From: Patescibacteria group bacterium
Lineage (GTDB): Bacteria; Patescibacteriota; Patescibacteriia; 2-01-FULL-39-33
Direction: 5' to 3'
DNA: 32,000 bases
Assembly: GCA_041662745.1 (NCBI GenBank)
Contig: JBAZRV010000006.1
Coordinates: 1 to 32,000, forward strand
This document shows positions 9,195 through 28,548 of the stretch, one piece after another (the stretch's first letter is position 1; the number at the start of each line of letters is the position of its first letter). Under the pieces are notes generated by a model. The model ran no database searches. It was not told the DNA's origin and saw only the letters and a list, made by a program, of their open reading frames with translations. The translations under genes were made by a program, and so were the position numbers.

Positions 9195-10049
9195 ATGCCT
9201 GATTATCCCAAAATCGGCGCGCATATATCCGCCGCCGTTAATATCAGCCAAGCGCCCCGGCGCGCCTGGAAAGCCGGCTGCGAATGTTTCCAATTCTTTT
9301 CCCGATCGCCCCAAGGCGGTCCGACCAAAGAGCTGACGGAACAAACGGTCGCTGACTTTAAAGCCGACTGCGAAAAATATAAATTGGAAAGTTATCTCCA
9401 TAGCCCTTATTATATCAATCTGGCTTCGGCCAAAAACAATATTTACTACGGGTCTATCAGCGCCCTGCGCGAGGAACTGGAACGCGGATCGTTGCTGGGC
9501 GTCAAATACATGATGGCGCATTTGGGCAGCGCCAAAGATTTAGGAAAAAAGGCGGGGATGAAAAGAGTTGCGGAAGGATTGGAAAAAGTCTTGGCCGGCT
9601 ATAAGGGCAAAACGGAATTTCTGATTGAGCTGTCGGCCGGAGCGGGAGCGATCATTGGCGACACCTTTGAAGAAATCGCCAAAATCGTTAATTCGCCACG
9701 GCTTAGAAAGCATCAAATCGGCATCTGCTTTGACACCTGCCACGCCTTCGCTTCGGGCTATGATTTGCGGACGGAACAAGCGGTCAAAAAAACCTTTAAA
9801 AAATTTGATCAGATCCTGGGACTGAAACGGCTCAAGCTTATCCACGCCAATGACTCGCAAACCGGACTGGGCAGCCACAAAGACAGGCATGAGCATATCG
9901 GCCAAGGCCAAATCGGACTGGCCGGATTCAGGGCCATCGTTAAATTCGCCGAAAAGCAAAAAATCAACCTGATCTTAGAAACTCCCGACGGAAACGATCG
10001 CGTTAAAGACATAAAAATGCTGAAAAAAATAAAAAAACAAGCCAAATGA
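9195..10049 (+). CDS. nfo: Deoxyribonuclease IV (AP endonuclease, Nfo family)
   Basis: IGAHISAA, HSPYYINLAS, MAHLGS, LIELSAG, CFDTCHAFASGYD, IHANDS...GSHKDRHEHIGQGQIG. Confidence 0.92.
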   Translation: MPDYPKIGAHISAAVNISQAPRRAWKAGCECFQFFSRSPQGGPTKELTEQTVADFKADCEKYKLESYLHSPYYINLASAKNNIYYGSISALREELERGSLLGVKYMMAHLGSAKDLGKKAGMKRVAEGLEKVLAGYKGKTEFLIELSAGAGAIIGDTFEEIAKIVNSPRLRKHQIGICFDTCHAFASGYDLRTEQAVKKTFKKFDQILGLKRLKLIHANDSQTGLGSHKDRHEHIGQGQIGLAGFRAIVKFAEKQKINLILETPDGNDRVKDIKMLKKIKKQAK

Positions 10050-11536: not shown

Positions 11537-12319
11537 TCAATGTTTTCTCTTATAAGAAAACGAGATTAACCCAATAATAATCAATGCAACACTAAACACC
11601 TGCGGGAAGCGAAAACCAAAGATCATGGCTGTCGCGTCAAACCGTAAAAACTCCATTATAAATCTGATCAGTCCGTAGCCAGCGAGATATAACGCCAAAT
11701 ATTGCCCCGACCGGAACAGCCTTTTTTTGAAAGAAAAAAACAATAATAAAAATAAACATAAACTCAACAACGATTCATACAAAAACAGCGGTTGGAAATA
11801 TTGGCTGGATGAATACTGTTCCGGCCGCAAGCTGGCCGGTATGGGTATGCCCCAAGGCAGGCCAGTGGGCCGGCCGAACAATTCCTGATTAAAATAATTG
11901 CCCCAACGCCCCAACGCCTGACCCAAGGGCAAGACCACGGCGGATAGATCCAGCCATGGCCAAACTGAACGTTTCTTCCGCCAACACCAGAAGAGCAAAA
12001 ATAAAATCCCGCCGATGATCGCGCCGTGGATCGCCATTCCTCCCTGCCAAACGGCGATAATCGCCTGCGGATGCCGGGAAAAATAAGCCCAGTCAACTAC
12101 CAGCACGTCATACAAACGCGCCCCGATAACCGCCCCGATAACCGCCCAGAAAGCCAACTCATAAATGTCATCGCTCTTATCGCCCTGGCGGCGCAACAAA
12201 TAAACCGCCACAGCTAAGCAAAGCAGGATAGCTGAAGCGATAATCAGGCCGTACCAATAAATATTAATGGGGCCAAAGGAAAAAACGATTCTGCCGGGGG
12301 TAAAATAATGGATGAACAT
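11537..12319 (-). CDS. lgt: Prolipoprotein diacylglyceryl transferase
   Basis: INIYWYGLIIASAILL, GARLYDV, GGMAIHGAIIGG, LGRWGNYFNQELFGRPT..PWGI, SQYFQPLFLYES. Confidence 0.92.
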   Translation of the reverse strand: MFIHYFTPGRIVFSFGPINIYWYGLIIASAILLCLAVAVYLLRRQGDKSDDIYELAFWAVIGAVIGARLYDVLVVDWAYFSRHPQAIIAVWQGGMAIHGAIIGGILFLLFWCWRKKRSVWPWLDLSAVVLPLGQALGRWGNYFNQELFGRPTGLPWGIPIPASLRPEQYSSSQYFQPLFLYESLLSLCLFLLLFFSFKKRLFRSGQYLALYLAGYGLIRFIMEFLRFDATAMIFGFRFPQVFSVALIIIGLISFSYKRKH

Positions 12320-12972: not shown

Positions 12973-12988
12973 AATGTTTTTTCCTCAT

Positions 12989-13024
12989 CCCCCGCGAACG
13001 CGTTTCGCGGGGGAATTTATTTTC
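12989..13024 (+). terminator. Rho-independent terminator
   Basis: CCCCCGCGAA (12989-12998) pairs with TTCGCGGGGG (13004-13013) and is followed by AATTTATTTT. Confidence 0.8.
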
Positions 13025-13062
13025 CTTATATTGTATTTGCATTATATTTACATTTAAAAAAT

Positions 13063-13201
13063 GCGGCCATTGAAAATATTGCGCCAATTTTCAGTGTCCG
13101 TCACAGACGGACCGTGCGGACACGAAAAATTTTCGCAAGCGCAGCGTCAGAAAATTTAAGTGGGCGCAACTGAAAATTTGGCCATGATTTTTAGCGGCCG
13201 C
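13063..13201. repeat. Imperfect 33-bp inverted-repeat pair flanking a 73-bp core that holds further hairpins (MITE-like or a large stem-loop)
   Basis: Arm 13063-13095 matches the reverse complement of 13169-13201 at 25 of 33 positions by hand alignment. The core contains GTCCGTC-ACA-GACGGAC and CGTG-CGGA-CACG. Confidence 0.6.
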
Positions 13202-13212
13202 GACTCTTTGGT

Positions 13213-13238
13213 GATACTTTTCTCTAGAGAAAAGTATC
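13213..13238. repeat. Perfect 26-bp palindrome GATACTTTTCTCTAGAGAAAAGTATC
   Basis: Read directly. The reverse complement is identical. Confidence 0.9.
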
Positions 13239-13284
13239 GTGAAAATTAAACCCCTCATAATCTCCTCTTCCATAAGGGGTAGAA

Positions 13285-13337
13285 ATAACCTGGATTCCCG
13301 CCCTTGCCTGCCGGCAGGCAAGGTACATGGGAATGAC
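13285..13337 (-). repeat. Palindromic repeat-element copy B (reverse orientation), enclosing a perfect 22-bp palindrome CCTTGCCTGCCGGCAGGCAAGG
   Basis: The reverse complement reads GTCATTCCC...GCGGGAATCCAGGTTAT. The palindrome is at 13302-13323. The CCTGCCGGCAGGCA core recurs at 28590-28603. Confidence 0.75.
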
Positions 13338-13347
13338 AACTCTGATA

Positions 13348-13376
13348 TTGACATTTCTCTTTAAATGCTATATAAT
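13348..13376 (+). promoter_or_regulatory. Consensus promoter for rpsO-pnp
   Basis: TTGACA (13348-13353), a 17-nt spacer, then TATAAT (13371-13376). Confidence 0.8.
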
Positions 13377-13382
13377 AAAACC

Positions 13383-13489
13383 ACTAATTATTAAGGCGAA
13401 TTTCCGGTGCCGGAGGGCCGGCAACCCCGGTTTCTGCTATTCTGCAGAACTACACAAGTACTGGGAATTACGCGACACAAGTCATCACT
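13383..13489 (+). promoter_or_regulatory. rpsO 5' leader (~107 nt) with a GC-rich stacked hairpin and no SD. Candidate S15 autoregulatory element.
   Basis: A CCGGTGCCGGAGGGCCGGCAACCCCGG helix set lies inside an otherwise AT-rich leader. S15 autoregulation through leader structures is established in other bacteria. Confidence 0.35.
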
Positions 13490-13852
13490 ATGATAGACAA
13501 AAAAAAGAAACAGCAAATCATCAAAAAATTTGCTGTCCATGAGAACGACACCGGATCATCGGAAGTGCAAATCGCGCTCTTGACCGAAGAAATCAAAAGC
13601 CTGACCGAACACTTAAAAGCCCACAAAAAAGATTTTTCTTCCCGCCGCGGCTTATTGCGCAAGGTGGCCGAAAGACGCAGATTGTTGCGTTATTTGGAGA
13701 GAGAAAATTCCGCCGGCTTTGACGAGCTGGTCAAGTGCCTGAAGCTGAAGATCGCCAAACGCAAAGAGCTCTCCTCCAAATTACTGGAAGACGAGATCAA
13801 AGAAGAATTGGGTGAAGAAATCAAACCTGAAACCGAAACCACTGAAATATAA
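13490..13852 (+). CDS. rpsO: 30S ribosomal protein S15 with a ~30-aa acidic C-terminal extension
   Basis: NDTGSSEVQIALLTEEIKSLTEHLKAHKKDFSSRRGLLRKVAERRRLLRYL is the S15 core. The 120-aa length compares with about 89 aa normally. Confidence 0.93.
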   Translation: MIDKKKKQQIIKKFAVHENDTGSSEVQIALLTEEIKSLTEHLKAHKKDFSSRRGLLRKVAERRRLLRYLERENSAGFDELVKCLKLKIAKRKELSSKLLEDEIKEELGEEIKPETETTEI

Positions 13853-14032: not shown

Positions 14033-16318
14033 ATGTTTGCAAACAAAAAATTCCAAACCGAATTCGGCGGCAGAACTTTAACCGTAGAACTCGGCAAACT
14101 GGCTCACCAATGCAATGGCGCAGCCCTGGTTTCTTATGGCGAAACCGTTATCTTGGCCACCGCCGTTATGGGCAAAGAACCCAGAATGGGTATTGACTTC
14201 TTTCCGTTGCAAATAGAAATGGTGGAAAAGATGTACGCCGCCGGCAAAATCAAAGGTTCCAAGTTCGTCAAACGCGACGGCCGCCCGACCGATAACGCCA
14301 TTTTAGACGGCCGCATGATTGACCGCGGCATTCGCCCGCTCTTCAATCAAGAAATGCGCCACGAGGTGCAAGTCGCCACTACCGTCTTGTCTTATGACGA
14401 GGAGAACTCTGTTGATGTCTTGGCGATTACCGCCGGCTCATTGGCCCTGCATATTTCCGATATCCCTTGGCGCGGCCCCTTGGTCGGCGTCTGCGTCGGC
14501 CGTGTTAACGGCGAACTCATTCTTAACCCAACCGAAAGCCAATTGAAAGAATCTGATTTTAAATTGATTTTCTCGGCCGGTTATGACAAAGTTTTGATGA
14601 TTGACGCTGAAGGCAAAGAAATCACCGAGGCGGATATGGCTCAAGCCATTGGCTTCGGACTCAAAGCTATCAAACCGCTGTTAGATTTCATTGAAAGCAT
14701 CAGAAAAGAAATCGGACTGGGGAAAAAAGACGAGGCCAAATTAGTTGAAGCCGCTTGGGCCAACATGGAAATCACCTTGGCCGAGAAAAAAGCGACTTTT
14801 GAGGAAGCCAAGAAATTCTTTGCGCCCCAACTGGACAAATACCTGTTCAACCAGCCCAAAGGCACCAAACGCGAACGCAAGGCCGTGGCTGAAAAACTCT
14901 TGGATTTGTTCATTGAACAACTGAAAGCCAAAAATACTCACGAAGAGATTATTGCTTATATCAAAGAAAACTTTGATTTGTATTTGGAAGACGAAGTAAC
15001 CAAGGCCATCTTAGATAAAGACTTAAGAATTGACGGCCGCGGCGTTACTGACATTAGACCCTTATCGGCTAACGTCGGCATCCTGCCCCGCACCCATGGC
15101 ACCGGCTTGTTCCAGCGCGGTGAAACCCAAATCCTGTCCGTTGTTACTTTGGGCGCGCCCGGCGATGCTCAAATTTTGGATGAAATGACCCAGGATGACA
15201 CCAAAAAAACTTACATCCACCATTATAGTTCCGCCCCCTTCGCTTATGGCGAACCGGGACGTTTTGGCTCACCCGGACGCCGCGAGATCGGCCACGGCGC
15301 TTTGGCGGAAAAAGCTTTGATTCCGGTTTTGCCGGACAAAGAGAAATTCCCTTACACCATCTTAGTCGTCTCCGAAGTCATGGGCTCTAACGGCTCATCT
15401 TCCATGGCCTCTACTTGCGGTTCCACTTTGGCCTTAATGGATGCCGGCGTACCCATCAAAAAACCGGTGGCCGGAATCGCCATGGGCCTCGCTTCTGATG
15501 GCCAGCGCAACAAGGTCATTACTGATTTGCAGGATTTTGAAGACGGTCCCGGCGGCATGGATTTCAAAGTTACCGGTACTGCCGATGGCATTACTGCCAT
15601 CCAAATGGACACCAAAACAGACGGATTATCCATAGACTTATGCGTTGAATCCCTGGCTCGCGCCAAAGAAGCGCGCCTGAAAATTTTAGACGTAATTACC
15701 AACGCTATTCCTGAACCGCGTTCCGATTTATCGCCATACGCTCCTCGCATCATCTGCTTACGCATTGATCCGGAAAAAATCGGCGCGGTTATCGGCGCCG
15801 GCGGCAAGGTTATCAACAAAATTATTGAAGAATGCGGCGTTCAGATTGATATTGATGATGACGGCATTGTCGCTATTACCGGCGTCGGCCAAGAAAGCAT
15901 GGACAAGGCCGTGGCTTGGATTGAAGGCTTAGTCAAAGAAGTGGAACCGGGTGAGATTTACACCGGCAAAGTGGTCCGCCTGATGGACTTTGGCGCTTTC
16001 GTAGAAATCCTGCCGGGCCAGGACGGCTTAGTGCATATTTCCGAATTCTCCAACAACCGCGTAGACAAAATAACCGATGTAGCCAACATCGGCGACGAAC
16101 TGACTGTTAAAGTCATTGAAATAGACGACAAGGGTCGCATCAATTTATCAGTCAAGCAGGCTGATCCGAATTATAATCCGGCCGAAGACATGCGTCGCCC
16201 GCGCAGCGATAGCGGCGATCGTCCCGGCGGACGGGGCGGTTTCAATCGCGACCGCGATCGCGGCGGGTTCGGCGGACAAAGACGGCGCGATAATGATCGC
16301 GGCGGGTTCCGACGCTAA
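14033..16318 (+). CDS. pnp: Polynucleotide phosphorylase with KH and S1 domains and an Arg/Gly-rich (RGG-like) C-terminal tail
   Basis: Two RNase PH-like halves (RPLFNQEMRHEVQV; EIGHGALAEKAL; SNGSSSMASTCGSTLALMDAGVP; DFKVTGT). KH (GAGGKVINKI). S1 (GKVVRLMDFGAFVEI). Tail GDRPGGRGGFNRDRDRGGFGGQRRRDNDRGGFRR. Confidence 0.97.
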   Translation: MFANKKFQTEFGGRTLTVELGKLAHQCNGAALVSYGETVILATAVMGKEPRMGIDFFPLQIEMVEKMYAAGKIKGSKFVKRDGRPTDNAILDGRMIDRGIRPLFNQEMRHEVQVATTVLSYDEENSVDVLAITAGSLALHISDIPWRGPLVGVCVGRVNGELILNPTESQLKESDFKLIFSAGYDKVLMIDAEGKEITEADMAQAIGFGLKAIKPLLDFIESIRKEIGLGKKDEAKLVEAAWANMEITLAEKKATFEEAKKFFAPQLDKYLFNQPKGTKRERKAVAEKLLDLFIEQLKAKNTHEEIIAYIKENFDLYLEDEVTKAILDKDLRIDGRGVTDIRPLSANVGILPRTHGTGLFQRGETQILSVVTLGAPGDAQILDEMTQDDTKKTYIHHYSSAPFAYGEPGRFGSPGRREIGHGALAEKALIPVLPDKEKFPYTILVVSEVMGSNGSSSMASTCGSTLALMDAGVPIKKPVAGIAMGLASDGQRNKVITDLQDFEDGPGGMDFKVTGTADGITAIQMDTKTDGLSIDLCVESLARAKEARLKILDVITNAIPEPRSDLSPYAPRIICLRIDPEKIGAVIGAGGKVINKIIEECGVQIDIDDDGIVAITGVGQESMDKAVAWIEGLVKEVEPGEIYTGKVVRLMDFGAFVEILPGQDGLVHISEFSNNRVDKITDVANIGDELTVKVIEIDDKGRINLSVKQADPNYNPAEDMRRPRSDSGDRPGGRGGFNRDRDRGGFGGQRRRDNDRGGFRR

Positions 16319-16345: not shown

Positions 16346-17704
16346 ATGATTGCTCTGCTTATTATCAAGCTGAAACAAATCTCTCACCGATCCCGGCTTC
16401 TGGCCGGGATTTCGGTAGGAGTTGTTTTTTTTCTTATCTTAATCAATCTGTTAAACGGTTTAAACAGCAATGATAAACTGGTTAGATTCGTCCGACCCAA
16501 CACCACCTTTTACTTATCGCTTAATCTCAGTTCAGCGGAAAAGTCCCTGGCCGGCCTAAAAATAATTGACCGCCTCTTGGCCGGCTATCAATTAACCGAT
16601 CTTAACCGCCATTGGCTCAAATCAAACCTGGGCCAAATTTGTTTGGCTGATAATAACAATCAATCTTGTTTTTTGCTGTTTGATGCCAGAAAAACCCAGG
16701 AAATTCAAAATTATCTGGCAAAAAAAAATATTCCCTATCGACGCTTCGGTAAAACCTTCGCCATTGCCGACAGCCGAGAAAAATTAAAGTCGCTTAGGAC
16801 CAATCTGTTGATCTCCCCCCTAAAGCCTCATGATAAGATTAATCGTCCGCGGGATATTACGGTTTATCTGCGTCCGCAAACCGGCAATAGCCCCAAAATG
16901 CTAAAAATAATTTCCTTAACTACTGCTGACCGAGGCGGCTTGTCTTGGCACGGCAAACTTTCCGGCCCCGCCATCAGTTTAATCGGCGATCAATCTTCGT
17001 TTCCTTTGTTGTCCTGGCCCATTATTTCCACCGAACAGTTGCCTAAAAATAGAAAAGACGCCGATTTAACCCTGGTTCTATCCGAACCGATCAAATTCTG
17101 GCAACAATGGCACAAAATAATTTCTTCCTCTCTGCCCAAAGACTACCAACTTCAAGAAAAAATTACCGCTCAACTGAAAAAATCGTACGGCTTTGATCCG
17201 ACTGATCGCCTTTGGAGCCAATTAGCCTCCCAACCGCTGACGATTATAGCCAAATCTCGTTCGGCTTCCGGCGAAGATCTGCTAAGTGGTTATGATTGGT
17301 CGTTATTTTTATCCGCCGGCCGAGTTCTGTCTGCCACAGATATGGAAAAAATAGAAACTATGATGAAAAAGCTGGTTTCTCGCCGTCAACCTCAAGTTCA
17401 AACGATTTATTTAAGCGATGGTACGCCGGTTGCCGAGTTGTTAAGCGGCGGCGAACCGCAAGAATCAAGCACTGATGACGGCCAACGCTTCTTTTCCAAC
17501 TCCGATCAGTCATTTATTCTGTTTTATTCAACCGAAAACGACAAATTAGAAATGGGGAACAGCCTTTCCTGGCAACCATCCCGAATATTGGATGATAAAA
17601 ATTACCTAAAAATCAATCTGCAAGCCTTCAAAACATACACCAATCCGGTTTTGGCTGATTTCAACTGGCTGGAATCCAGGGGCAATAAAGTGATAATCTA
17701 TTAA
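16346..17704 (+). CDS. Hypothetical N-terminally membrane-anchored protein, 452 aa
   Basis: Long uninterrupted ORF. A single N-terminal hydrophobic helix (LLAGISVGVVFFLILINLL). No catalytic motif recognised. Confidence 0.75.
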   Translation: MIALLIIKLKQISHRSRLLAGISVGVVFFLILINLLNGLNSNDKLVRFVRPNTTFYLSLNLSSAEKSLAGLKIIDRLLAGYQLTDLNRHWLKSNLGQICLADNNNQSCFLLFDARKTQEIQNYLAKKNIPYRRFGKTFAIADSREKLKSLRTNLLISPLKPHDKINRPRDITVYLRPQTGNSPKMLKIISLTTADRGGLSWHGKLSGPAISLIGDQSSFPLLSWPIISTEQLPKNRKDADLTLVLSEPIKFWQQWHKIISSSLPKDYQLQEKITAQLKKSYGFDPTDRLWSQLASQPLTIIAKSRSASGEDLLSGYDWSLFLSAGRVLSATDMEKIETMMKKLVSRRQPQVQTIYLSDGTPVAELLSGGEPQESSTDDGQRFFSNSDQSFILFYSTENDKLEMGNSLSWQPSRILDDKNYLKINLQAFKTYTNPVLADFNWLESRGNKVIIY

Positions 17705-17845: not shown

Positions 17846-17874
17846 TTGACCGTGTTGTCAAAAACTGATATAAT
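17846..17874 (+). promoter_or_regulatory. Sigma70-type promoter driving the long mgtA leader
   Basis: TTGACC (17846-17851), a 17-nt spacer, then TATAAT (17869-17874) with an extended TG. Confidence 0.75.
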
Positions 17875-17880
17875 ATCAAC

Positions 17881-18378
17881 AGGAGGCAAAGATAACGCTT
17901 CCAACGCACATTAGGGTCATAACAATGACCGCAGATATAGAAACCTGGCAATAAAGATACGTTAGCCCCAATAAGCCAAATATAAGTCTCTCTTGGCTCT
18001 CACGGCTAAACATCTCCATAGATTCATATCTTAGACCCAGCTTTCTGCTTTTTATCTGTTAGGCGCATGATGAAGGGACATAAGTCTCACCTTCGCGTCA
18101 GCGAACCTTACAACGCAACAACCCGCTCCCCAATCCGTTTCTCATGACAATTCGCACTGTCCAGGCGTCCAACAATTCCAAAAAGAGCAATTGTGCTCGC
18201 CGCTTCGCGGGTAAAAAGCATAGCCATCTGACTTACGGCTAAAACTCCGATATTCGGATTATTTATTCTCGCCTACTCATCAAGCAGGCGAAAATGAGTA
18301 CTGAGCACCGGATCTCAGTGGGCGCAAGCCAACCATAAGTAATAATTTAAGGTTGCGAATCTTGCGCCCCTTTTTTTA
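17881..18378 (+). promoter_or_regulatory. ORF-free structured leader RNA of about 500 nt upstream of mgtA (candidate cation-responsive riboswitch or other cis-regulatory RNA)
   Basis: No ORF of 60 aa or more in any frame between 17705 and 18437. Bounded by a promoter and a strong terminator. Two hairpins display the identical loop motif ATAAGTCTC. ACGGCTAAA is repeated. Alternative or pseudoknotted helices lie just upstream of the terminator. Confidence 0.55.
18320..18378 (+). terminator. Long rho-independent terminator, 60 nt upstream of the mgtA start
   Basis: GGGCGCAAG (18320-18328) pairs with CTTGCGCCC (18361-18369), with an inner CCAACC/GGTTG helix. C TTTTTTT follows. Confidence 0.85.
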
Positions 18379-18437
18379 TTCAAAAAATTTAGGGTAAAAA
18401 ACGATTTTTGTGATAAAATATAATTATACACAACACT

Positions 18438-21002
18438 ATGGCTGGAAAAATCATCACCGATAAAAACTTAAACAGGCTGGATTCCTTGACGGCAGAAAAA
18501 ATCGCCGCCGAATTGGGCTGCTCCCTTTCCGGTTTGACGCGGATAGAAGCGTCAAAACGCCGTTTAACTTACGGTTTAAACACCATTACCAGCGAGGGCA
18601 AGGGCAAGTTAATCTGGGAATTAAGCAAAAAAATACTAAGCCCGCTGGTAATCACGCTTTTAATCGTGGCCGCTTTTTCTTATTTTCTGGGCGAAAAAAT
18701 TTCTGCCATTATCATTATAACAATGGCGCTTATCGGCGTAGTCCTGTCATTTATTCAGGAGTATAGAGCGAAAAAAAACGCCGCCAAACTCAAGGCCATG
18801 GTCCGATTGCATGTTGAAGTTGTTCGTAACAGCAAAACAGCTAAAATCCCGCTGAAAGACTTGGTGCCGGGAGACATAGTTAATCTTTCCGCCGGCAATA
18901 TGATACCGGCAGACATTAAAATCATCTCAGCCAATAACCTTTTCCTTAATCAATCAACCTTAAACGGCGAATCATTCCCTATGGAGAAATGGGCTGTCCC
19001 GCCCAGTCCGGTTAAAACCAACACCCCGATTTATGACCTGCCGACCATTACCTTAATGGGCGCCAGCGTGGCATCGGGTACGGGTAGCGGCTTAGTAATG
19101 GCTACGGGCGCCAACACTGAATTCGGCAAGTTGGCCATTGATGTGGCCGCCAGCGAACCGGAAACCGCTTTTGACAGGGGCATCAGGGACTTCACCTGGA
19201 TGATGATCAAGCTGATCTTCATCTTGATGACTTTCGTTTTTGTCATTAATACCTTATTCAAAGGCAACTTCGTTGATTCTCTGTTATTCTCCTTGGCCGT
19301 TGCCGTCGGTTTGACTCCGGAAATGCTGCCGATGATAGTTACTGTCAATCTTTCGCGAGGCGCCAGGGCTATGGCCCAAAAAATGGTCATCATCAAGCGT
19401 TTAGACTCCATTCAGAATTTCGGCGCCATGGATGTCTTATGCACCGACAAAACCGGCACCTTGACTATGGATGAAATTATCCTGATTAAGCACTCGGACA
19501 TTGAGGGCAAAGAAAAAGAAGAGATTCTGCGCGATGCCTGGATTAACAGCACTTTCCAATCAGGTATGAACAATCTGTTGGATCGAGCGATCATCAAGCA
19601 CCACAAATTTAAAAAATCAGGCTTGAAAAAAATTGACGAAGTGCCCTTTGATTTTGATCGGCGCATTGTCTCGGTAATCATTCAAGACGAAAAAACCGAC
19701 AGATTAATCGCCAAGGGCGCGCCCGAAGAAATCATTAAACGCTGTAACAGCTACGATTTGAACGGGCGCAGATACGCCCTGGATAAAGGAAGAATAAAAC
19801 AGCTGGGACGGCAATATGACAAACTAAGCCGGGACGGCTTTCGTGTTCTGGCCATTGGCTACAAGGAAGTTGACCGCCAACAGAAAAAATTCAGCCAACA
19901 AGATGAAACTAAGCTTGTCTTCCACGGCTTTACTTCCTTCCTGGATCCGCCCAAAGCCAGCACCAAGGAAGCGATCAATAAAATAGAGGGGCTTGGCGTC
20001 AAACTAAAAATTCTCTCCGGCGACAACGAGCATGTAACCCAAAGAATCTGCGAAGAAGTGGGGCTGGACGGCACCGGCGTTATTACCGGCGGCAAAATTG
20101 AACGTTTAAACGATGATGATCTGCGTAAAATAGTAGAAGAAAAAAACATCTTCGCCCGCCTCTTACCGCTTCAAAAAGAACGGGTCATCAAAGCTCTTCA
20201 GGATAACGGCCACGTCGTGGGTTTTTTGGGCGACGGCATCAACGACGCTCCGGCCTTAAAGGCCGCAGATGTGGGAATCTCCGTCAATAACGCCGCGGAT
20301 ATCGCCAAAGAAACGGCGGATATGATCCTGTTGCGTAAAAGCTTATTAGTCTTAGCCGACGGCGTCAAAGAGGGAAGAAGGACTTTCGCCAACACCTTGA
20401 AATACATCAAGATGGGCGCCTCCTCCAATTTCGGCAATATGCTCTCCATCACCGGTGCTTCAATCATTTTGCCCTTTCTGCCGATGTTGCCGCCGCAAAT
20501 CCTGCTGAACAACTTCATGTATGATCTCTCGCAAATCTTTTTGCCGACCGACAATGTGGACGAAGACTATCTGCTCAAGCCTCGTCCTTGGCATATCGCT
20601 TTCATTAAAAAATTCATTCTGATTATCGGGCCGGTTTCTTCTTTGTTTGATTTTATGACTTACGGCCTGATGTGGTTTATATTCAACGGCGCGGCCAACC
20701 CCGCCCTTTTCCGCACCGGCTGGTTCGTAGAATCGCTTTTTACCCAAACCCTGATTATTTACGTCATCCGCACCAACAAAATCCCCTTCCTGCAAAGCCG
20801 TCCCAGCCGCGCCATAGTTTTTGCCACCTTAAGCATTGTCGGTTTAGGCTGTATCCTGCCCTTCACTTCAATCGGCAGATTGTTCCAATTCCAACCGTTG
20901 CCGAGCCTGTACTTCGTCTTATTATTCGGCCTGGGCCTTTTATACTTATCCTTAACCCAATTAGTTAAAATGCTATTTATTAAAAAATACGGCTATGAAT
21001 AA
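18438..21002 (+). CDS. mgtA: Magnesium-translocating P-type ATPase (MgtA/MgtB subfamily)
   Basis: DKTGTLT phosphorylation motif, GDGINDAPALKAADVGISV hinge, and PFLPMLPPQILLNNFMYDLSQIFLPTDNVDEDYL, which closely resembles the MgtA-specific TM region as I recall it. Confidence 0.9.
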   Translation: MAGKIITDKNLNRLDSLTAEKIAAELGCSLSGLTRIEASKRRLTYGLNTITSEGKGKLIWELSKKILSPLVITLLIVAAFSYFLGEKISAIIIITMALIGVVLSFIQEYRAKKNAAKLKAMVRLHVEVVRNSKTAKIPLKDLVPGDIVNLSAGNMIPADIKIISANNLFLNQSTLNGESFPMEKWAVPPSPVKTNTPIYDLPTITLMGASVASGTGSGLVMATGANTEFGKLAIDVAASEPETAFDRGIRDFTWMMIKLIFILMTFVFVINTLFKGNFVDSLLFSLAVAVGLTPEMLPMIVTVNLSRGARAMAQKMVIIKRLDSIQNFGAMDVLCTDKTGTLTMDEIILIKHSDIEGKEKEEILRDAWINSTFQSGMNNLLDRAIIKHHKFKKSGLKKIDEVPFDFDRRIVSVIIQDEKTDRLIAKGAPEEIIKRCNSYDLNGRRYALDKGRIKQLGRQYDKLSRDGFRVLAIGYKEVDRQQKKFSQQDETKLVFHGFTSFLDPPKASTKEAINKIEGLGVKLKILSGDNEHVTQRICEEVGLDGTGVITGGKIERLNDDDLRKIVEEKNIFARLLPLQKERVIKALQDNGHVVGFLGDGINDAPALKAADVGISVNNAADIAKETADMILLRKSLLVLADGVKEGRRTFANTLKYIKMGASSNFGNMLSITGASIILPFLPMLPPQILLNNFMYDLSQIFLPTDNVDEDYLLKPRPWHIAFIKKFILIIGPVSSLFDFMTYGLMWFIFNGAANPALFRTGWFVESLFTQTLIIYVIRTNKIPFLQSRPSRAIVFATLSIVGLGCILPFTSIGRLFQFQPLPSLYFVLLFGLGLLYLSLTQLVKMLFIKKYGYE

Positions 21003-25713: not shown

Positions 25714-28548
25714 ATGACAGCTAAAAAACAAAAACTCCTGATTATTGATTCTAATGCTCTGGTGCATCGCGCTTTCCACGCCCTGCCGCCGACCCTAACC
25801 GACGAGAAGGGCCGGCCGACCAACGCGGTTTACGGCTTCACCTCCATTTTCCTTAAGGCGATAAAAGACATTAAGCCCGACTACATCGCGGCCACTTTTG
25901 ACCGCAAAGAGAAAACCTTCCGCCACGAGCAGTATGAGGCGTACAAGGCCACGCGCGTCAAAGCGCCGGATGAGCTGTATGAACAAATCCCTCTGGTCAA
26001 ACAAGTGTTAGAAGCATTTAGCATACCGATTTTTGAACTGGCCGGCTATGAAGCCGATGATTTGATCGGCACTATTGCCAATCTGAAAACCATTGACCGG
26101 CCCGATATTGAAACTATTATTCTAACCGGCGATCAGGATTGTTTGCAATTGGTAGACTACAACACTAAGGTTTTTTCGCCTCATAAGGGGCTGTCAGAAA
26201 CAATCCTCTACGGCGAAGCCGAAGTCAAGGAAAAATTCGGCGGCTTGATGCCCGGTCAACTGATTGATTACAAAGGACTGCGCGGCGACACTTCTGACAA
26301 CATCCCCGGCGTCCGGGGTATCGGCGAGAAAGGCGCGATTGATTTGTTGAATAATTTCAAGACCATTGAAGGAATCTACGAGCACATTGATTCTGATTTG
26401 ATCAAAGACCGCACGCGGGAACTGCTTAAGGAACAAAAGAAGCAAGCGCTGATGTCGCGGGAACTGGCGACAATTAAAAAGGATGCGCCCATAAAATTCA
26501 AATTGGCCGATTGCCGTTTCACCGGCTTTGATCAAAACAAAGTCGTTGATTTATTTCAAGAGTTGGGATTTAAACGGCTGATGAACCAAGTGGCCACGCT
26601 GGCTAAAAGCGGCCTGATCGCGCCGACCGGCCAAGGCAGTTTGTTCTCTGCCGCGGTTAGCGATCAAGAAGAAAAAGAATCAACCGCCTTCTCTGTCATT
26701 CCCGCGAAGGCGGGAATCCAGGTTAATAATCATCCTGCCAATAGCCGCTTGGGCAAACAGGACTACCGGCTGGTAACAGCCGGCGACTTGAAAAAATTTT
26801 TAGCCGAACTGAAAAAACAAGAAGAATTTTGCTTTGATACGGAAACAACCGGGCTTAACCCCTTTGCTGACAATTTAATCGGCATCGCTTTCTGCTGGCA
26901 AGCCGGCGCAGCCCGGTATCTGCCGGTTGATTTAGCCGATCAGATTAAGCCGGAACTGTCGAAAATTTTCGACAGTAAAAAAATCAAAAAAATCGGACAC
27001 AATCTTAAATTCGACGCCGAAGTGTTGGAAAAATATTTCGGCCAAGCGATCAACGGGCTGTCTTTTGATACCATGATTGCTTCCTACATCTTGAACCCCG
27101 GCCATCGCCAGCACAACCTGGACACTTTGGCGTTTATTGAATTCGGTTACCAGATGCAGCCGATCAGCGATTTGATCGGCAACGGCAAAAACCAAATTTC
27201 CCTGGCCGAAGCGCCGCTGGAAAAAGTCAGCTGGTATTCCAGCGAGGACGCTGACTTGACCTTCCGCCTGTATCAGAAGCTTCGGCCGGAGCTGGATAAA
27301 TCCGCCCTGCTGCCACTATTTGAAAAATTGGAAATGCCCTTGGTTGAAGTATTGGTGGCCATGGAGACTAACGGCATCAGAATAAACAGCAAAGCCTTAA
27401 AAAACTTAAGCGCCGTTTTTGCCAAGAGAATCAAAGAGCTGGAAAAAAAAGCCTGGAAAATGGCGGGCGAAGAATTCAATCTGGCCAGCCCCAAGCAGTT
27501 AAAGGAAATCTTGTTTGACAAAATGGGCATCTCCACTGCCGGCATCGGCAAAACCAAAACCGGCTTGTCTACCGCCGCCGGCGAACTGGAAAAGCTTCAG
27601 GGTCAACATAAGATAATTGACTTAATCATAGAATTCCGCGAACTATCTAAGCTGAAGAACACCTATCTGGACGCCCTGCCGGCTTTGGCTGATTCCTCCG
27701 GCCGTGTCCATACCAGTTACAACCAAACCGTCACCGCCACCGGGCGCCTATCGTCTTCCGAGCCCAACCTGCAGAATATTCCCATTCGCACCGAAACGGG
27801 CGGACCCATTCGCAAGGCGTTTATCGCCGACAAGGGTTTTCAAATTCTTAAAGCCGATTACTCGCAGATTGAATTGCGCATCATCGCATCGCTCGCCAAC
27901 GACAAGCAAATGCTGAAGATTTTCCAGTCTGGCGGTGATATTCATACTATGACCGCGGCCATTATTCACAGCATTAAGCCGGAAGAAGTGACTAAGGCTC
28001 TGCGCCGCACGGCCAAAGAAATCAATTTCGGCGTAATCTACGGCATGGGCGCCTGGGGGCTGTCCTCTCGTACCGGTCTATCCAACACGGAAGCGCAGAA
28101 ATTCATCTACAAATACTTTGAAACCTTTTCCGGCGTCAAGAAATGGCTGGAGGAAACCGTGGAGATCGCCAAAGACAAGGGTTATGTGGAGACCTTTTAC
28201 GGCCGCAAGCGCTACTTGCCGGAAATCAATTCCAGCATTTCCCAGGTTCGTAACAGCGCCGAACGCATGGCCGTCAATATGCCGATTCAAGGAACGGCTG
28301 CCGATTTGATCAAGCTGGCTATGATAGAAATCCACGCCGGCCTGCCCAAAGTATCGGAACGCTCCCGCCTGTTGTTGCAAGTCCACGACGAATTAGTTCT
28401 GGAAGTGCCGGAACATGAGGTCCGCAAAGTCGGCAAATACGTCCATGACACCATGTGCTCGGTCATGAAACTGCGCGCGCCCATTGACGCCGACGTTTCC
28501 GCCGGCGATAATTGGGGAGAGACCTCCCCGCTGTCATTCCGGCCGTAG
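25714..28548 (+). CDS. polA: DNA polymerase I with 5' nuclease, 3'-5' exonuclease and polymerase domains
   Basis: LLIIDSNALVHRAFHA, GYEADDLIGT, DNIPGVRGIGEKGA (5' nuclease). FDTETTGL (ExoI). DYSQIELRI, RRTAKEINFGVIYG, QVHDELV (polymerase motifs A, B, C). Confidence 0.97.
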   Translation: MTAKKQKLLIIDSNALVHRAFHALPPTLTDEKGRPTNAVYGFTSIFLKAIKDIKPDYIAATFDRKEKTFRHEQYEAYKATRVKAPDELYEQIPLVKQVLEAFSIPIFELAGYEADDLIGTIANLKTIDRPDIETIILTGDQDCLQLVDYNTKVFSPHKGLSETILYGEAEVKEKFGGLMPGQLIDYKGLRGDTSDNIPGVRGIGEKGAIDLLNNFKTIEGIYEHIDSDLIKDRTRELLKEQKKQALMSRELATIKKDAPIKFKLADCRFTGFDQNKVVDLFQELGFKRLMNQVATLAKSGLIAPTGQGSLFSAAVSDQEEKESTAFSVIPAKAGIQVNNHPANSRLGKQDYRLVTAGDLKKFLAELKKQEEFCFDTETTGLNPFADNLIGIAFCWQAGAARYLPVDLADQIKPELSKIFDSKKIKKIGHNLKFDAEVLEKYFGQAINGLSFDTMIASYILNPGHRQHNLDTLAFIEFGYQMQPISDLIGNGKNQISLAEAPLEKVSWYSSEDADLTFRLYQKLRPELDKSALLPLFEKLEMPLVEVLVAMETNGIRINSKALKNLSAVFAKRIKELEKKAWKMAGEEFNLASPKQLKEILFDKMGISTAGIGKTKTGLSTAAGELEKLQGQHKIIDLIIEFRELSKLKNTYLDALPALADSSGRVHTSYNQTVTATGRLSSSEPNLQNIPIRTETGGPIRKAFIADKGFQILKADYSQIELRIIASLANDKQMLKIFQSGGDIHTMTAAIIHSIKPEEVTKALRRTAKEINFGVIYGMGAWGLSSRTGLSNTEAQKFIYKYFETFSGVKKWLEETVEIAKDKGYVETFYGRKRYLPEINSSISQVRNSAERMAVNMPIQGTAADLIKLAMIEIHAGLPKVSERSRLLLQVHDELVLEVPEHEVRKVGKYVHDTMCSVMKLRAPIDADVSAGDNWGETSPLSFRP
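26695..26725 (+). repeat. Palindromic repeat-element copy C, inside the polA ORF (translated as SVIPAKAGIQVN)
   Basis: GTCATTCCCGC-GAA-GGCGGGAATCCAGGTTA. Its termini match the intergenic copies. Confidence 0.8.

Follow-up and report, generated by a model that had tools for sequence, protein, structure and literature searches.

Does the long non-coding stretch ahead of a magnesium transporter gene control that gene, or is it a gene in its own right? The question is raised by a Patescibacteria contig (JBAZRV010000006.1), of which we analysed 32,000 nucleotides (nt), hereafter the window. Here, 733 nt separate a gene that we call X from mgtA, which encodes an MgtA-type P-type ATPase, and this gap houses a non-coding RNA of about 498 nt. 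A first-pass annotation, made from the sequence, took the RNA for a candidate large or novel cation-responsive leader attenuating mgtA. The part of this proposal that stands is a large, structured and undescribed RNA; the part that does not is the role as mgtA attenuator, since the RNA persists where mgtA is missing. The element is probably an independent, functional and novel structured RNA gene, the representative of a previously undescribed family of multi-domain RNAs of about 500–565 nt.

A delimited non-coding transcription unit

Three features define the RNA gene:

17846–17874, + strand: RNA promoter, with a −35 box TTGACC (17846–17851), a 17-nt spacer and the extended −10 box TGATATAAT (TG-n-TATAAT, 17866–17874)
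17881–18378, + strand: non-coding RNA of about 498 nt, from the predicted start to the end of the U-run, free of open reading frames (ORFs)
18320–18377, + strand: intrinsic terminator, with a 9-bp outer stem, an inner stem CAACC/GGUUG and U7

We searched for homologues of the RNA through homologues of the ATPase, through homologues of protein X, and by one exact-pattern scan of metagenome contigs. This gave eight distinct sequences of 495–564 nt, the window included, from six lineages, all on Patescibacteria metagenome contigs. They fall into group A (495–502 nt: the window, L024, L026, L042 and L044) and group B (551–564 nt: L031, L028 and L034, to which L040 is identical).

The promoter proposed by the first-pass annotation matches 11 of the 12 consensus positions, plus the TG, and places the RNA start near A17881. 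TTTGACC and TGnTATAAT are invariant in the eight homologues, and the terminator is also found in all of them. The G+C-rich outer stem of the latter pairs GGGCGCAAG (18320–18328) with CUUGCGCCC (18361–18369) and precedes U7 at 18371–18377. The arms are GGGCGCAAG/CUUGCGCCC in group A and GGCGCCGAC/GUCGGCGCC in group B, 9 bp in each case and followed by a U-run. Hence, both the annotated promoter and the annotated terminator, 60 nt before mgtA, were borne out.

The transcript had also been described as having no ORF of at least 60 amino acids (aa), and indeed the longest + strand ORFs within it have 26 and 32 aa. None keeps its start, frame or length among the homologues, none is common to groups A and B, and the indels between close relatives are of 1, 2 and 4 nt. 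Judged from these differences, the RNA is non-coding and specifies no conserved peptide. The folding energy of the + strand is −145.5 kcal/mol, compared with −113.3 ± 6.2 for shuffled sequences (z = −5.2).

Conservation and distribution

The RNA is more conserved than the genes around it. Between the window and L024 the nucleotide identity is 94.6% for the RNA, 84.8% for pnp, 82.1% for the ATPase gene and 78.7% for gene X, and third codon positions in the flanking genes are 62–65% identical. The comparison of group A with group B gives identities of 28% for protein X, 67% for the ATPase, 75% for the polynucleotide phosphorylase (PNPase) encoded by pnp and about 70% for the central domain of the RNA. 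Over the eight sequences, 192 of the 498 positions are invariant. By these identities, the RNA is under stronger purifying selection than the adjoining protein genes.

The distribution seems narrow. The metagenome pattern scan returned six true matches and three chance matches (eukaryote-like), the former accounting for only six lineages. An ATPase-based scan of the GTDB genomes found only relatives at ≤60% identity, none with the RNA. There was no match to the RNA by BLAST in phage and plasmid records, nor by a two-motif pattern scan in viral contigs. The closest relatives of the window ATPase, and an exact copy of the protein encoded upstream, derive from metagenome-assembled genomes of Patescibacteria, one of them annotated as Candidatus Buchananbacteria. 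The contig of P0003 has the gene order of the window with a gap of 961 nt. The RNA has so far been seen in one Patescibacteria subclade only, one carrier being annotated as Candidatus Buchananbacteria.

Folded structure and covariation

RNAalifold, applied to groups A and B separately, gave the same architecture for both: two 5′ hairpins (H1, H2), a variable 5′ domain, a central domain, and the 3′ hairpins H5, H7 and H8 followed by the terminator. In window coordinates the elements are:

17882–17902, + strand: H1, 5′-terminal hairpin, GGAGGC/GCUUCC; group B has a longer hairpin at this place
17915–17930, + strand: H2, hairpin GGUCAU-AACA-AUGACC
17939–18046, + strand: 5′ domain, the most variable one, closed by H3 (17939–17948 with 18037–18046)
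18047–18219, + strand: central domain, the most conserved one (84 of 173 positions invariant), with three arms, H4a, H4b and H4c
18062–18099, + strand: H4a, GGCGC/GCGUC plus GAAGG/CCUUC (18072–18076 with 18090–18094), with a 13-nt loop GACAWAAGUCUYA (18077–18089)
18101–18155, + strand: H4b, invariant stem GCGAA/UUCGC, with a loop whose length varies by indels
18164–18201, + strand: H4c, outer stem GGCG/CGCC, inner stem ACAAUU (18172–18177)/AAUUGU (18189–18194) and conserved loop CCAAAAAGAGC
18221–18241, + strand: H5, UAGCC/GGCUA, with an invariant UGACUUA in the loop
18246–18258, + strand: H6, hairpin UCCGA-UAU-UCGGA, in group A only
18261–18299, + strand: H7, extended hairpin AUUUAUU-C-UCGCCU ... 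AGGCGA-A-AAUGAGU
18300–18319, + strand: H8, hairpin ACUGAG/CUCAGU, abutting the terminator

The 5′ domain encloses a long stem in three parts (AGAUA/UUAGCC/AGCCAA ...) and a hairpin AGAU-UCAU-AUCU, and is about 70 nt longer in group B. H3, which closes it, has nine pairs, five of which change on both sides, with 98.6% of cells paired. In H2, three of the six pairs change on both sides. Taken together, H2 and H3 have 97.5% of cells paired, against 29–52% in slid controls, and both-side changes in 8 of 15 pairs, against 4.5 ± 1.3 in shuffles, of which 2 in 500 reach the observed value.

The central domain is closed by H4, a long-range helix of 13 bp between GCUUUUUAUCUGU (18047–18059) and GCGGGUAAAAAGC (18207–18219). 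All variation is in its 5′ strand: four pairs differ solely by G-U/G-C exchange and a fifth goes from U-A to C-A in group B, with the 3′ strand invariant throughout. Read from the opposite strand, the G-U pairs would turn into A-C mismatches, so the RNA can be assigned to the + strand. The domain is 93% paired and mostly invariant, with double changes in four pairs. The inner stem of H4a is the same in all homologues and its 13-nt loop nearly so. In H4c, the outer stem has G18167-C18198 as its innermost pair, which occurs as GC, UA or AU, and the loop CCAAAAAGAGC is closed by three different stem sequences.

The 3′ hairpins vary in the same manner. H5 occurs as UAGCC/GGCUA, GUUGC/GCAAC or UGUUGU/ACAACA around an unchanged loop motif. 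H7 has 13 pairs, three with both-side changes, and 94% of cells paired. H8 occurs as ACUGAG/CUCAGU, ACUGA/UCAGU or ACUGG/CCAGU. After realignment with a covariance model, the 3′ domain has 10 doubly changed pairs, against 4.7 ± 1.4 in shuffles (0 of 500 reaching it). In this realignment, part of H5 and the terminator of group B were misregistered, and we thus inspected the helices sequence by sequence: H4c, H5, H8 and the terminator each have two or three different stem sequences, with their conserved loops kept. By these alignments, compensatory substitutions on the + strand keep the helices paired; we rate the covariation evidence as good, if below the grade of R-scape.

AAGUC in the H4a loop and GACUU in the H5 loop could form a kissing pair of 5–6 bp. 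By our own estimate, 5 bp would arise between two such loops by chance in about 6% of cases, so we propose this contact tentatively. Separately, the H8 loop of group B (L031 2215–2240 and its equivalents in L034 and L028) contains a GGCGC that could pair with GCGCC of the terminator 5′ arm; it is absent from group A.

Many of the motifs listed in the first-pass annotation are part of this fold, and all the hairpins and repeats that it quoted lie where it had placed them. GGTCAT-AACA-ATGACC is H2 and CTGAG...CTCAG is H8, both confirmed by the comparison. UCCGA/UCGGA is present, as H6, and restricted to group A. GAGCA/UGCUC is not kept in group B; ACAAUU/AAUUGU with the loop CCAAAAAGAGC covaries instead. 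Likewise, the interleaved ACUCAU/AUGAGU helix, proposed as the arm of a pseudoknot, is lost in group B, and the nested extension AUUUAUU/AAUGAGU fits better. The 9-nt motif AUAAGUCUC, noted as shared by two hairpin loops, does occur in both, and its second copy (18080–18088) is nearly invariant; the sharing itself is not conserved, the first copy being AUAAACCUC or AUCAAUCUC in the closest relatives. In the same relatives the first copy of the second repeat, ACGGCUAAA, becomes ACAGCUAAA. Two repeated 9-mers per 498 nt occur in 7% of dinucleotide shuffles, and these repeats are therefore not beyond chance.

Known RNA families

We scanned the window, the intergenic region, the isolated element and six homologous loci with Rfam 15, at the gathering score and at E ≤ 10. 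Only a tRNA was found in the window, and elsewhere only chance-level matches. No family matched the isolated element of either group at E ≤ 10, with matches listed down to 12–25 bits; thus, no known family explains the region, in line with the undescribed class entertained in the first-pass annotation. In particular, the Rfam models of OLE, ROOL, GOLLD, HEARO and raiA had no match in the window or its homologues. ARAGORN reported only a tRNA-Cys in the window, and tmRNA had no Rfam match. Literature searches returned no description of such an RNA, nor of any lineage-specific large RNA, in bacteria of the Candidate Phyla Radiation (CPR).

The first-pass annotation had pointed to short islands in the RNA that resemble the M-box (ykoK) consensus. 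They have no support from Rfam: RF00380 did not match the isolated element of either group, at the gathering score or at E ≤ 10. A divergent or tandem M-box is ruled out by this result and by the lack of a consistent link to mgtA across lineages. As for the Salmonella-type mgtA leader, there was no Rfam match to a Mg sensor and no conserved short, proline-rich leader ORF.

The RNA might also be one of the universal RNAs in a very divergent form, RNase P RNA being the most plausible candidate. Lui et al. 2021 (PMC8172020) had to lower thresholds to detect RNase P RNA in 10 of 35 circular CPR genomes, where many of its helices are missing or extended and diverged forms escape standard thresholds. 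We therefore tested the idea directly by motif searches. The roughly 440 nt before the terminator and the degree of conservation would suit an essential RNA. The motif consensus that we used (CR-I, GAGGAAAGUCC..., and CR-V, ACAGAA...GGCUUA, which form helix P4) is that of the Escherichia coli M1 RNA, and AAGUC and GACUUA loosely resemble the two strands of P4, which we counted in favour of this idea. However, CR-I (GAGGAAAGUCCGGGC) and CR-V (ACAGAANNNGGCUUA) are absent from 17881–18378 even with three mismatches. Complementarity of the P4 kind is confined to a pair of hairpin loops, outside the P2/P1 (P4) pseudoknot topology, and no conserved P1 helix joins the two ends of the RNA. Neither RF00010 nor RF00011 appears, even weakly, among the hits listed down to 12–25 bits in either group. 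The absence of a tmRNA in the ARAGORN search and the apparently narrow distribution (six lineages in the metagenome pattern scan) also argue against a universal RNA. We rejected RNase P RNA after the motif searches, and regard a divergent universal RNA as highly improbable.

The RNA and mgtA

The genes around the RNA, and the candidate promoter of mgtA, are the following:

13490–13852: rpsO, encoding ribosomal protein S15
14033–16318: pnp, encoding PNPase
16346–17704, + strand: gene X, 452 aa, with an N-terminal membrane helix and no Pfam or NCBIfam match, adjoining the RNA in all eight homologues
18411–18419, + strand: extended −10 box of mgtA, TGATAAAAT, outside the RNA, between its terminator and the ATG at 18438
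18438–21002, + strand: mgtA, encoding an MgtA-type P-type ATPase (TIGR01524, 1005 bits)
downstream of mgtA, opposite strand: SMC gene

The layout invites the reading that the RNA is a cation-sensing attenuation leader, i.e., the 5′ untranslated region of mgtA, where Mg2+ as ligand would decide whether the terminator forms. Promoter, structured RNA, terminator and, 60 nt later, mgtA follow each other in one orientation; the ATPase is truly of the MgtA type; mgtA comes directly after the RNA in six of the eight homologues; and it has no Shine-Dalgarno sequence.

The comparison of loci nevertheless separates the RNA from mgtA in both directions. L042 and L043, on a contig annotated as Ca. Buchananbacteria (Ga0172379_10001081), have the order S15-pnp-X-RNA-43 aa-259 aa-SMC. 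There, the RNA is 91.5% identical to that of the window despite the missing ATPase, of which tblastn detected no remnant in L042. In L028 and L041, two ORFs of 147 and 100 aa and 1.55 kb lie between the terminator and the ATPase. (The ATPase ORF of L034 extends past the end of the locus; the ATPase was seen in L040.) Conversely, the mgtA orthologues of L046 (70% identity) and L047–L050 (65%) have upstream gaps of 119–142 nt and no RNA, L047–L050 retaining the downstream SMC. None of 20 more distant Patescibacteria mgtA loci has the RNA either; 18 of their upstream gaps range from an overlap to 187 nt and two measure 345 and 431 nt, and an Rfam scan of ten of them found no M-box. The regions upstream of mgtA homologues thus lack the conservation expected from the first-pass annotation, and in this set of loci the presence of the RNA is independent of mgtA.

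The first-pass annotation was right that mgtA lacks a Shine-Dalgarno sequence; contrary to its remark that no strong promoter is obvious, mgtA does have a promoter-like element. In every lineage where the ATPase adjoins the RNA, an extended −10 box matching the consensus (TGATAAAAT, TGGTAAAAT or TGTTATAAT) is found past the terminator and ahead of the ATG. This makes it likely that mgtA has a separate promoter and a leader of about 12 nt. Several other genes of this genome also start just past a −10 box with no Shine-Dalgarno sequence. We found no conserved antiterminator, the best upstream partner of the terminator 5′ arm differing in nearly every sequence tested, and H8 abuts the terminator. 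Two of these findings speak against a transcription-attenuation riboswitch, the missing antiterminator and the candidate mgtA promoter past the terminator. The absence of a match to M-box or Mg sensor models points the same way, as does size: at 500–565 nt, the RNA by far exceeds the riboswitch aptamers that we know of, none of which approaches this length.

In summary, the RNA is kept without mgtA, orthologues of mgtA occur without the RNA, a −10 box lies downstream, and no antiterminator is conserved. This leaves the leader reading unsupported. The RNA is probably not a magnesium riboswitch or an attenuating leader of mgtA, and we regard a cation-sensing leader as unlikely.

The RNA and the pnp-X block

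Of the neighbours of the RNA, only protein X, an orphan specific to this lineage, is constant. Its homologues (P0121–P0126; L031 311–1561; L028 553–1731; L034 3561–4811) have 392–452 aa and an N-terminal membrane helix, and their genes always follow pnp. Only six relatives were found among 5.8 billion clustered proteins, and the AlphaFold2 model has a poor pLDDT of 55.

This constancy suggests another reading, in which the RNA is an element linked to the S15-pnp-X operon, a structured 3′-terminal RNA partly produced by read-through and processing of the pnp-X transcript. It could then bind or regulate PNPase or protein X, or protect the 3′ end of the operon. Three observations favour it: gene X and the RNA stay adjacent in all eight homologues despite a divergence of X to 28% identity; the stretch from the stop codon of X (17704) to the RNA promoter contains no + strand terminator; and a distant X homologue that is not followed by the RNA (L045) bears a terminator hairpin of its own. 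However, the RNA has its own strong and fully conserved promoter. Moreover, the whole region keeps its order (S15-pnp-X-RNA-mgtA-SMC), and the adjacency of X and the RNA thus carries little weight. The lack of family matches for X and its poor structural model give this reading nothing further to build on, and we hold it to be very unlikely.

Interpretation

An independent structured RNA gene is the explanation that we favour. The element shows the features of a stand-alone structured RNA: a promoter and a terminator of its own, compensatory changes in its pairs, conservation above the neutral level and no conserved ORF. Several points weigh against this explanation. The family is small, with eight sequences in two deep groups, so that the covariation counts reflect few independent events, each inherited by several sequences. 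Both ends of the transcript are predictions from sequence. In six of the eight sequences (four of the six lineages) mgtA is next in the same orientation, 55–105 nt past the terminator, and read-through could contribute something to its expression. Downstream of L045, a distant X homologue, there is a terminator hairpin and no RNA. Finally, the role in trans or as a scaffold is one that we infer by analogy.

As an independent gene, the RNA would act in trans as a folded molecule. By analogy with OLE, ROOL, GOLLD and raiA, it would most likely be the core or scaffold of a ribonucleoprotein (RNP) or of an RNA-only assembly, and possibly a ribozyme. The invariant loops GACAWAAGUCUYA, CCAAAAGAGC and UGACUUA would make tertiary contacts or bind partners, and a possible pairing between AAGUC and GACUU would connect the central and 3′ domains. 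The adjacency to mgtA would then reflect conserved local gene order, not regulation.

A bolder version, which we find rather doubtful, would make the RNA the first large “ornate” class peculiar to CPR/Patescibacteria. As a ribozyme, or as the core of an assembly with or without protein, it would work at the membrane together with the co-located protein X and possibly MgtA. There it would have a role in ion and stress homeostasis like that of the OLE RNP, and its invariant loops would be catalytic or partner-binding sites.

Since CPR genomes are tiny, half a kilobase of non-coding DNA under selection above that of pnp is conspicuous. The element is also well delimited by its promoter and terminator, and it has three domains and eight covarying sequences. 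Its analysis corrects a tempting misannotation: a structured RNA and a terminator before a transporter gene need not be a riboswitch.

Other elements in the window

Three genes of the window, lgt (11537–12319, − strand), mgtA (from 18438, + strand) and polA (from 25714, + strand), lack a Shine-Dalgarno sequence and start a few to about 20 nt past a −10 box resembling TATAAT. Judged from these sequence signals, mRNAs with no leader or a very short one seem to be common in the source genome.

The gap upstream of rpsO (12973–13489) contains a repeat element of about 200 nt at 13031–13245, which includes a perfect palindrome of 26 nt (GATACTTTTCTCTAGAGAAAAGTATC, 13213–13238). Three copies, at 76–89% identity, occur in the Buchananbacteria locus L042 (762–965, 2453–2757 and 9238–9430). 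One of these sits at the site of the missing ATPase, between SMC and the 259-aa ORF. The element may be of the miniature inverted-repeat transposable element (MITE) or repetitive extragenic palindrome (REP) kind, and involved in the rearrangement of L042. A segment of 31–40 nt inside the polA ORF (26691–26730) matches intergenic positions of the same locus (2760–2798, 9436–9466 and 9549–9583) at 92–97% identity, adjoining copies of the repeat.

Closer to rpsO, positions 13385–13489 contain a TTGACA...TATAAT promoter and, after it, about 75 nt of G+C-rich leader that forms a hairpin. This leader, which had no match in the Rfam scan of the window, may serve the autoregulation of S15.

Comparison with known RNA systems

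To our knowledge, large and highly conserved structured RNAs are rare in bacteria, and every class that we know of (RNase P, tmRNA, group II introns, OLE, GOLLD, ROOL and raiA) is catalytic, the core of an RNP or an unusual RNA assembly.

The M-box (RF00380) and the Salmonella mgtA leader share with the RNA described here a structured element upstream of a Mg2+ P-type ATPase gene and an intrinsic terminator at its end. Unlike them, this RNA is not linked to mgtA across lineages, is followed by a likely separate mgtA promoter and has no conserved antiterminator. It is also about three times as long as the M-box, whose covariance model it does not match, and it lacks a conserved leader peptide such as that of the Salmonella leader (mgtL ORF).

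The diverged RNase P RNAs of CPR bacteria (PMC8172020) resemble it in host group, in being large, conserved and structured, and in being missed at standard Rfam thresholds. Against them, the RNA described here lacks CR-I and CR-V, the P1 helix and the P4 pseudoknot topology, has not even a weak match to RF00010 or RF00011, and has been seen in a narrow clade only.

The closest likeness in organisation is to OLE, ROOL, GOLLD and raiA, although none of their Rfam models matches and these RNAs are found in Bacillota, Actinomycetota and phages, not in Patescibacteria. Unlike ROOL and GOLLD, the present RNA has no match in phage or plasmid records or in viral contigs, and, unlike OLE, no neighbours of the oapA, oapB or oapC type were identified beside it. 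All of these RNAs, including the present one, measure several hundred nucleotides, are built of several domains and have many invariant nucleotides in loops and junctions. All are stand-alone genes with their own promoter and terminator, restricted to certain lineages and conserved above the adjoining genes. The likeness to OLE extends to the neighbourhood: according to PMC10898510, OLE RNA adjoins genes of membrane proteins and is linked to Mg2+ stress, and the Patescibacteria RNA adjoins the genes of the membrane-anchored protein X and MgtA.

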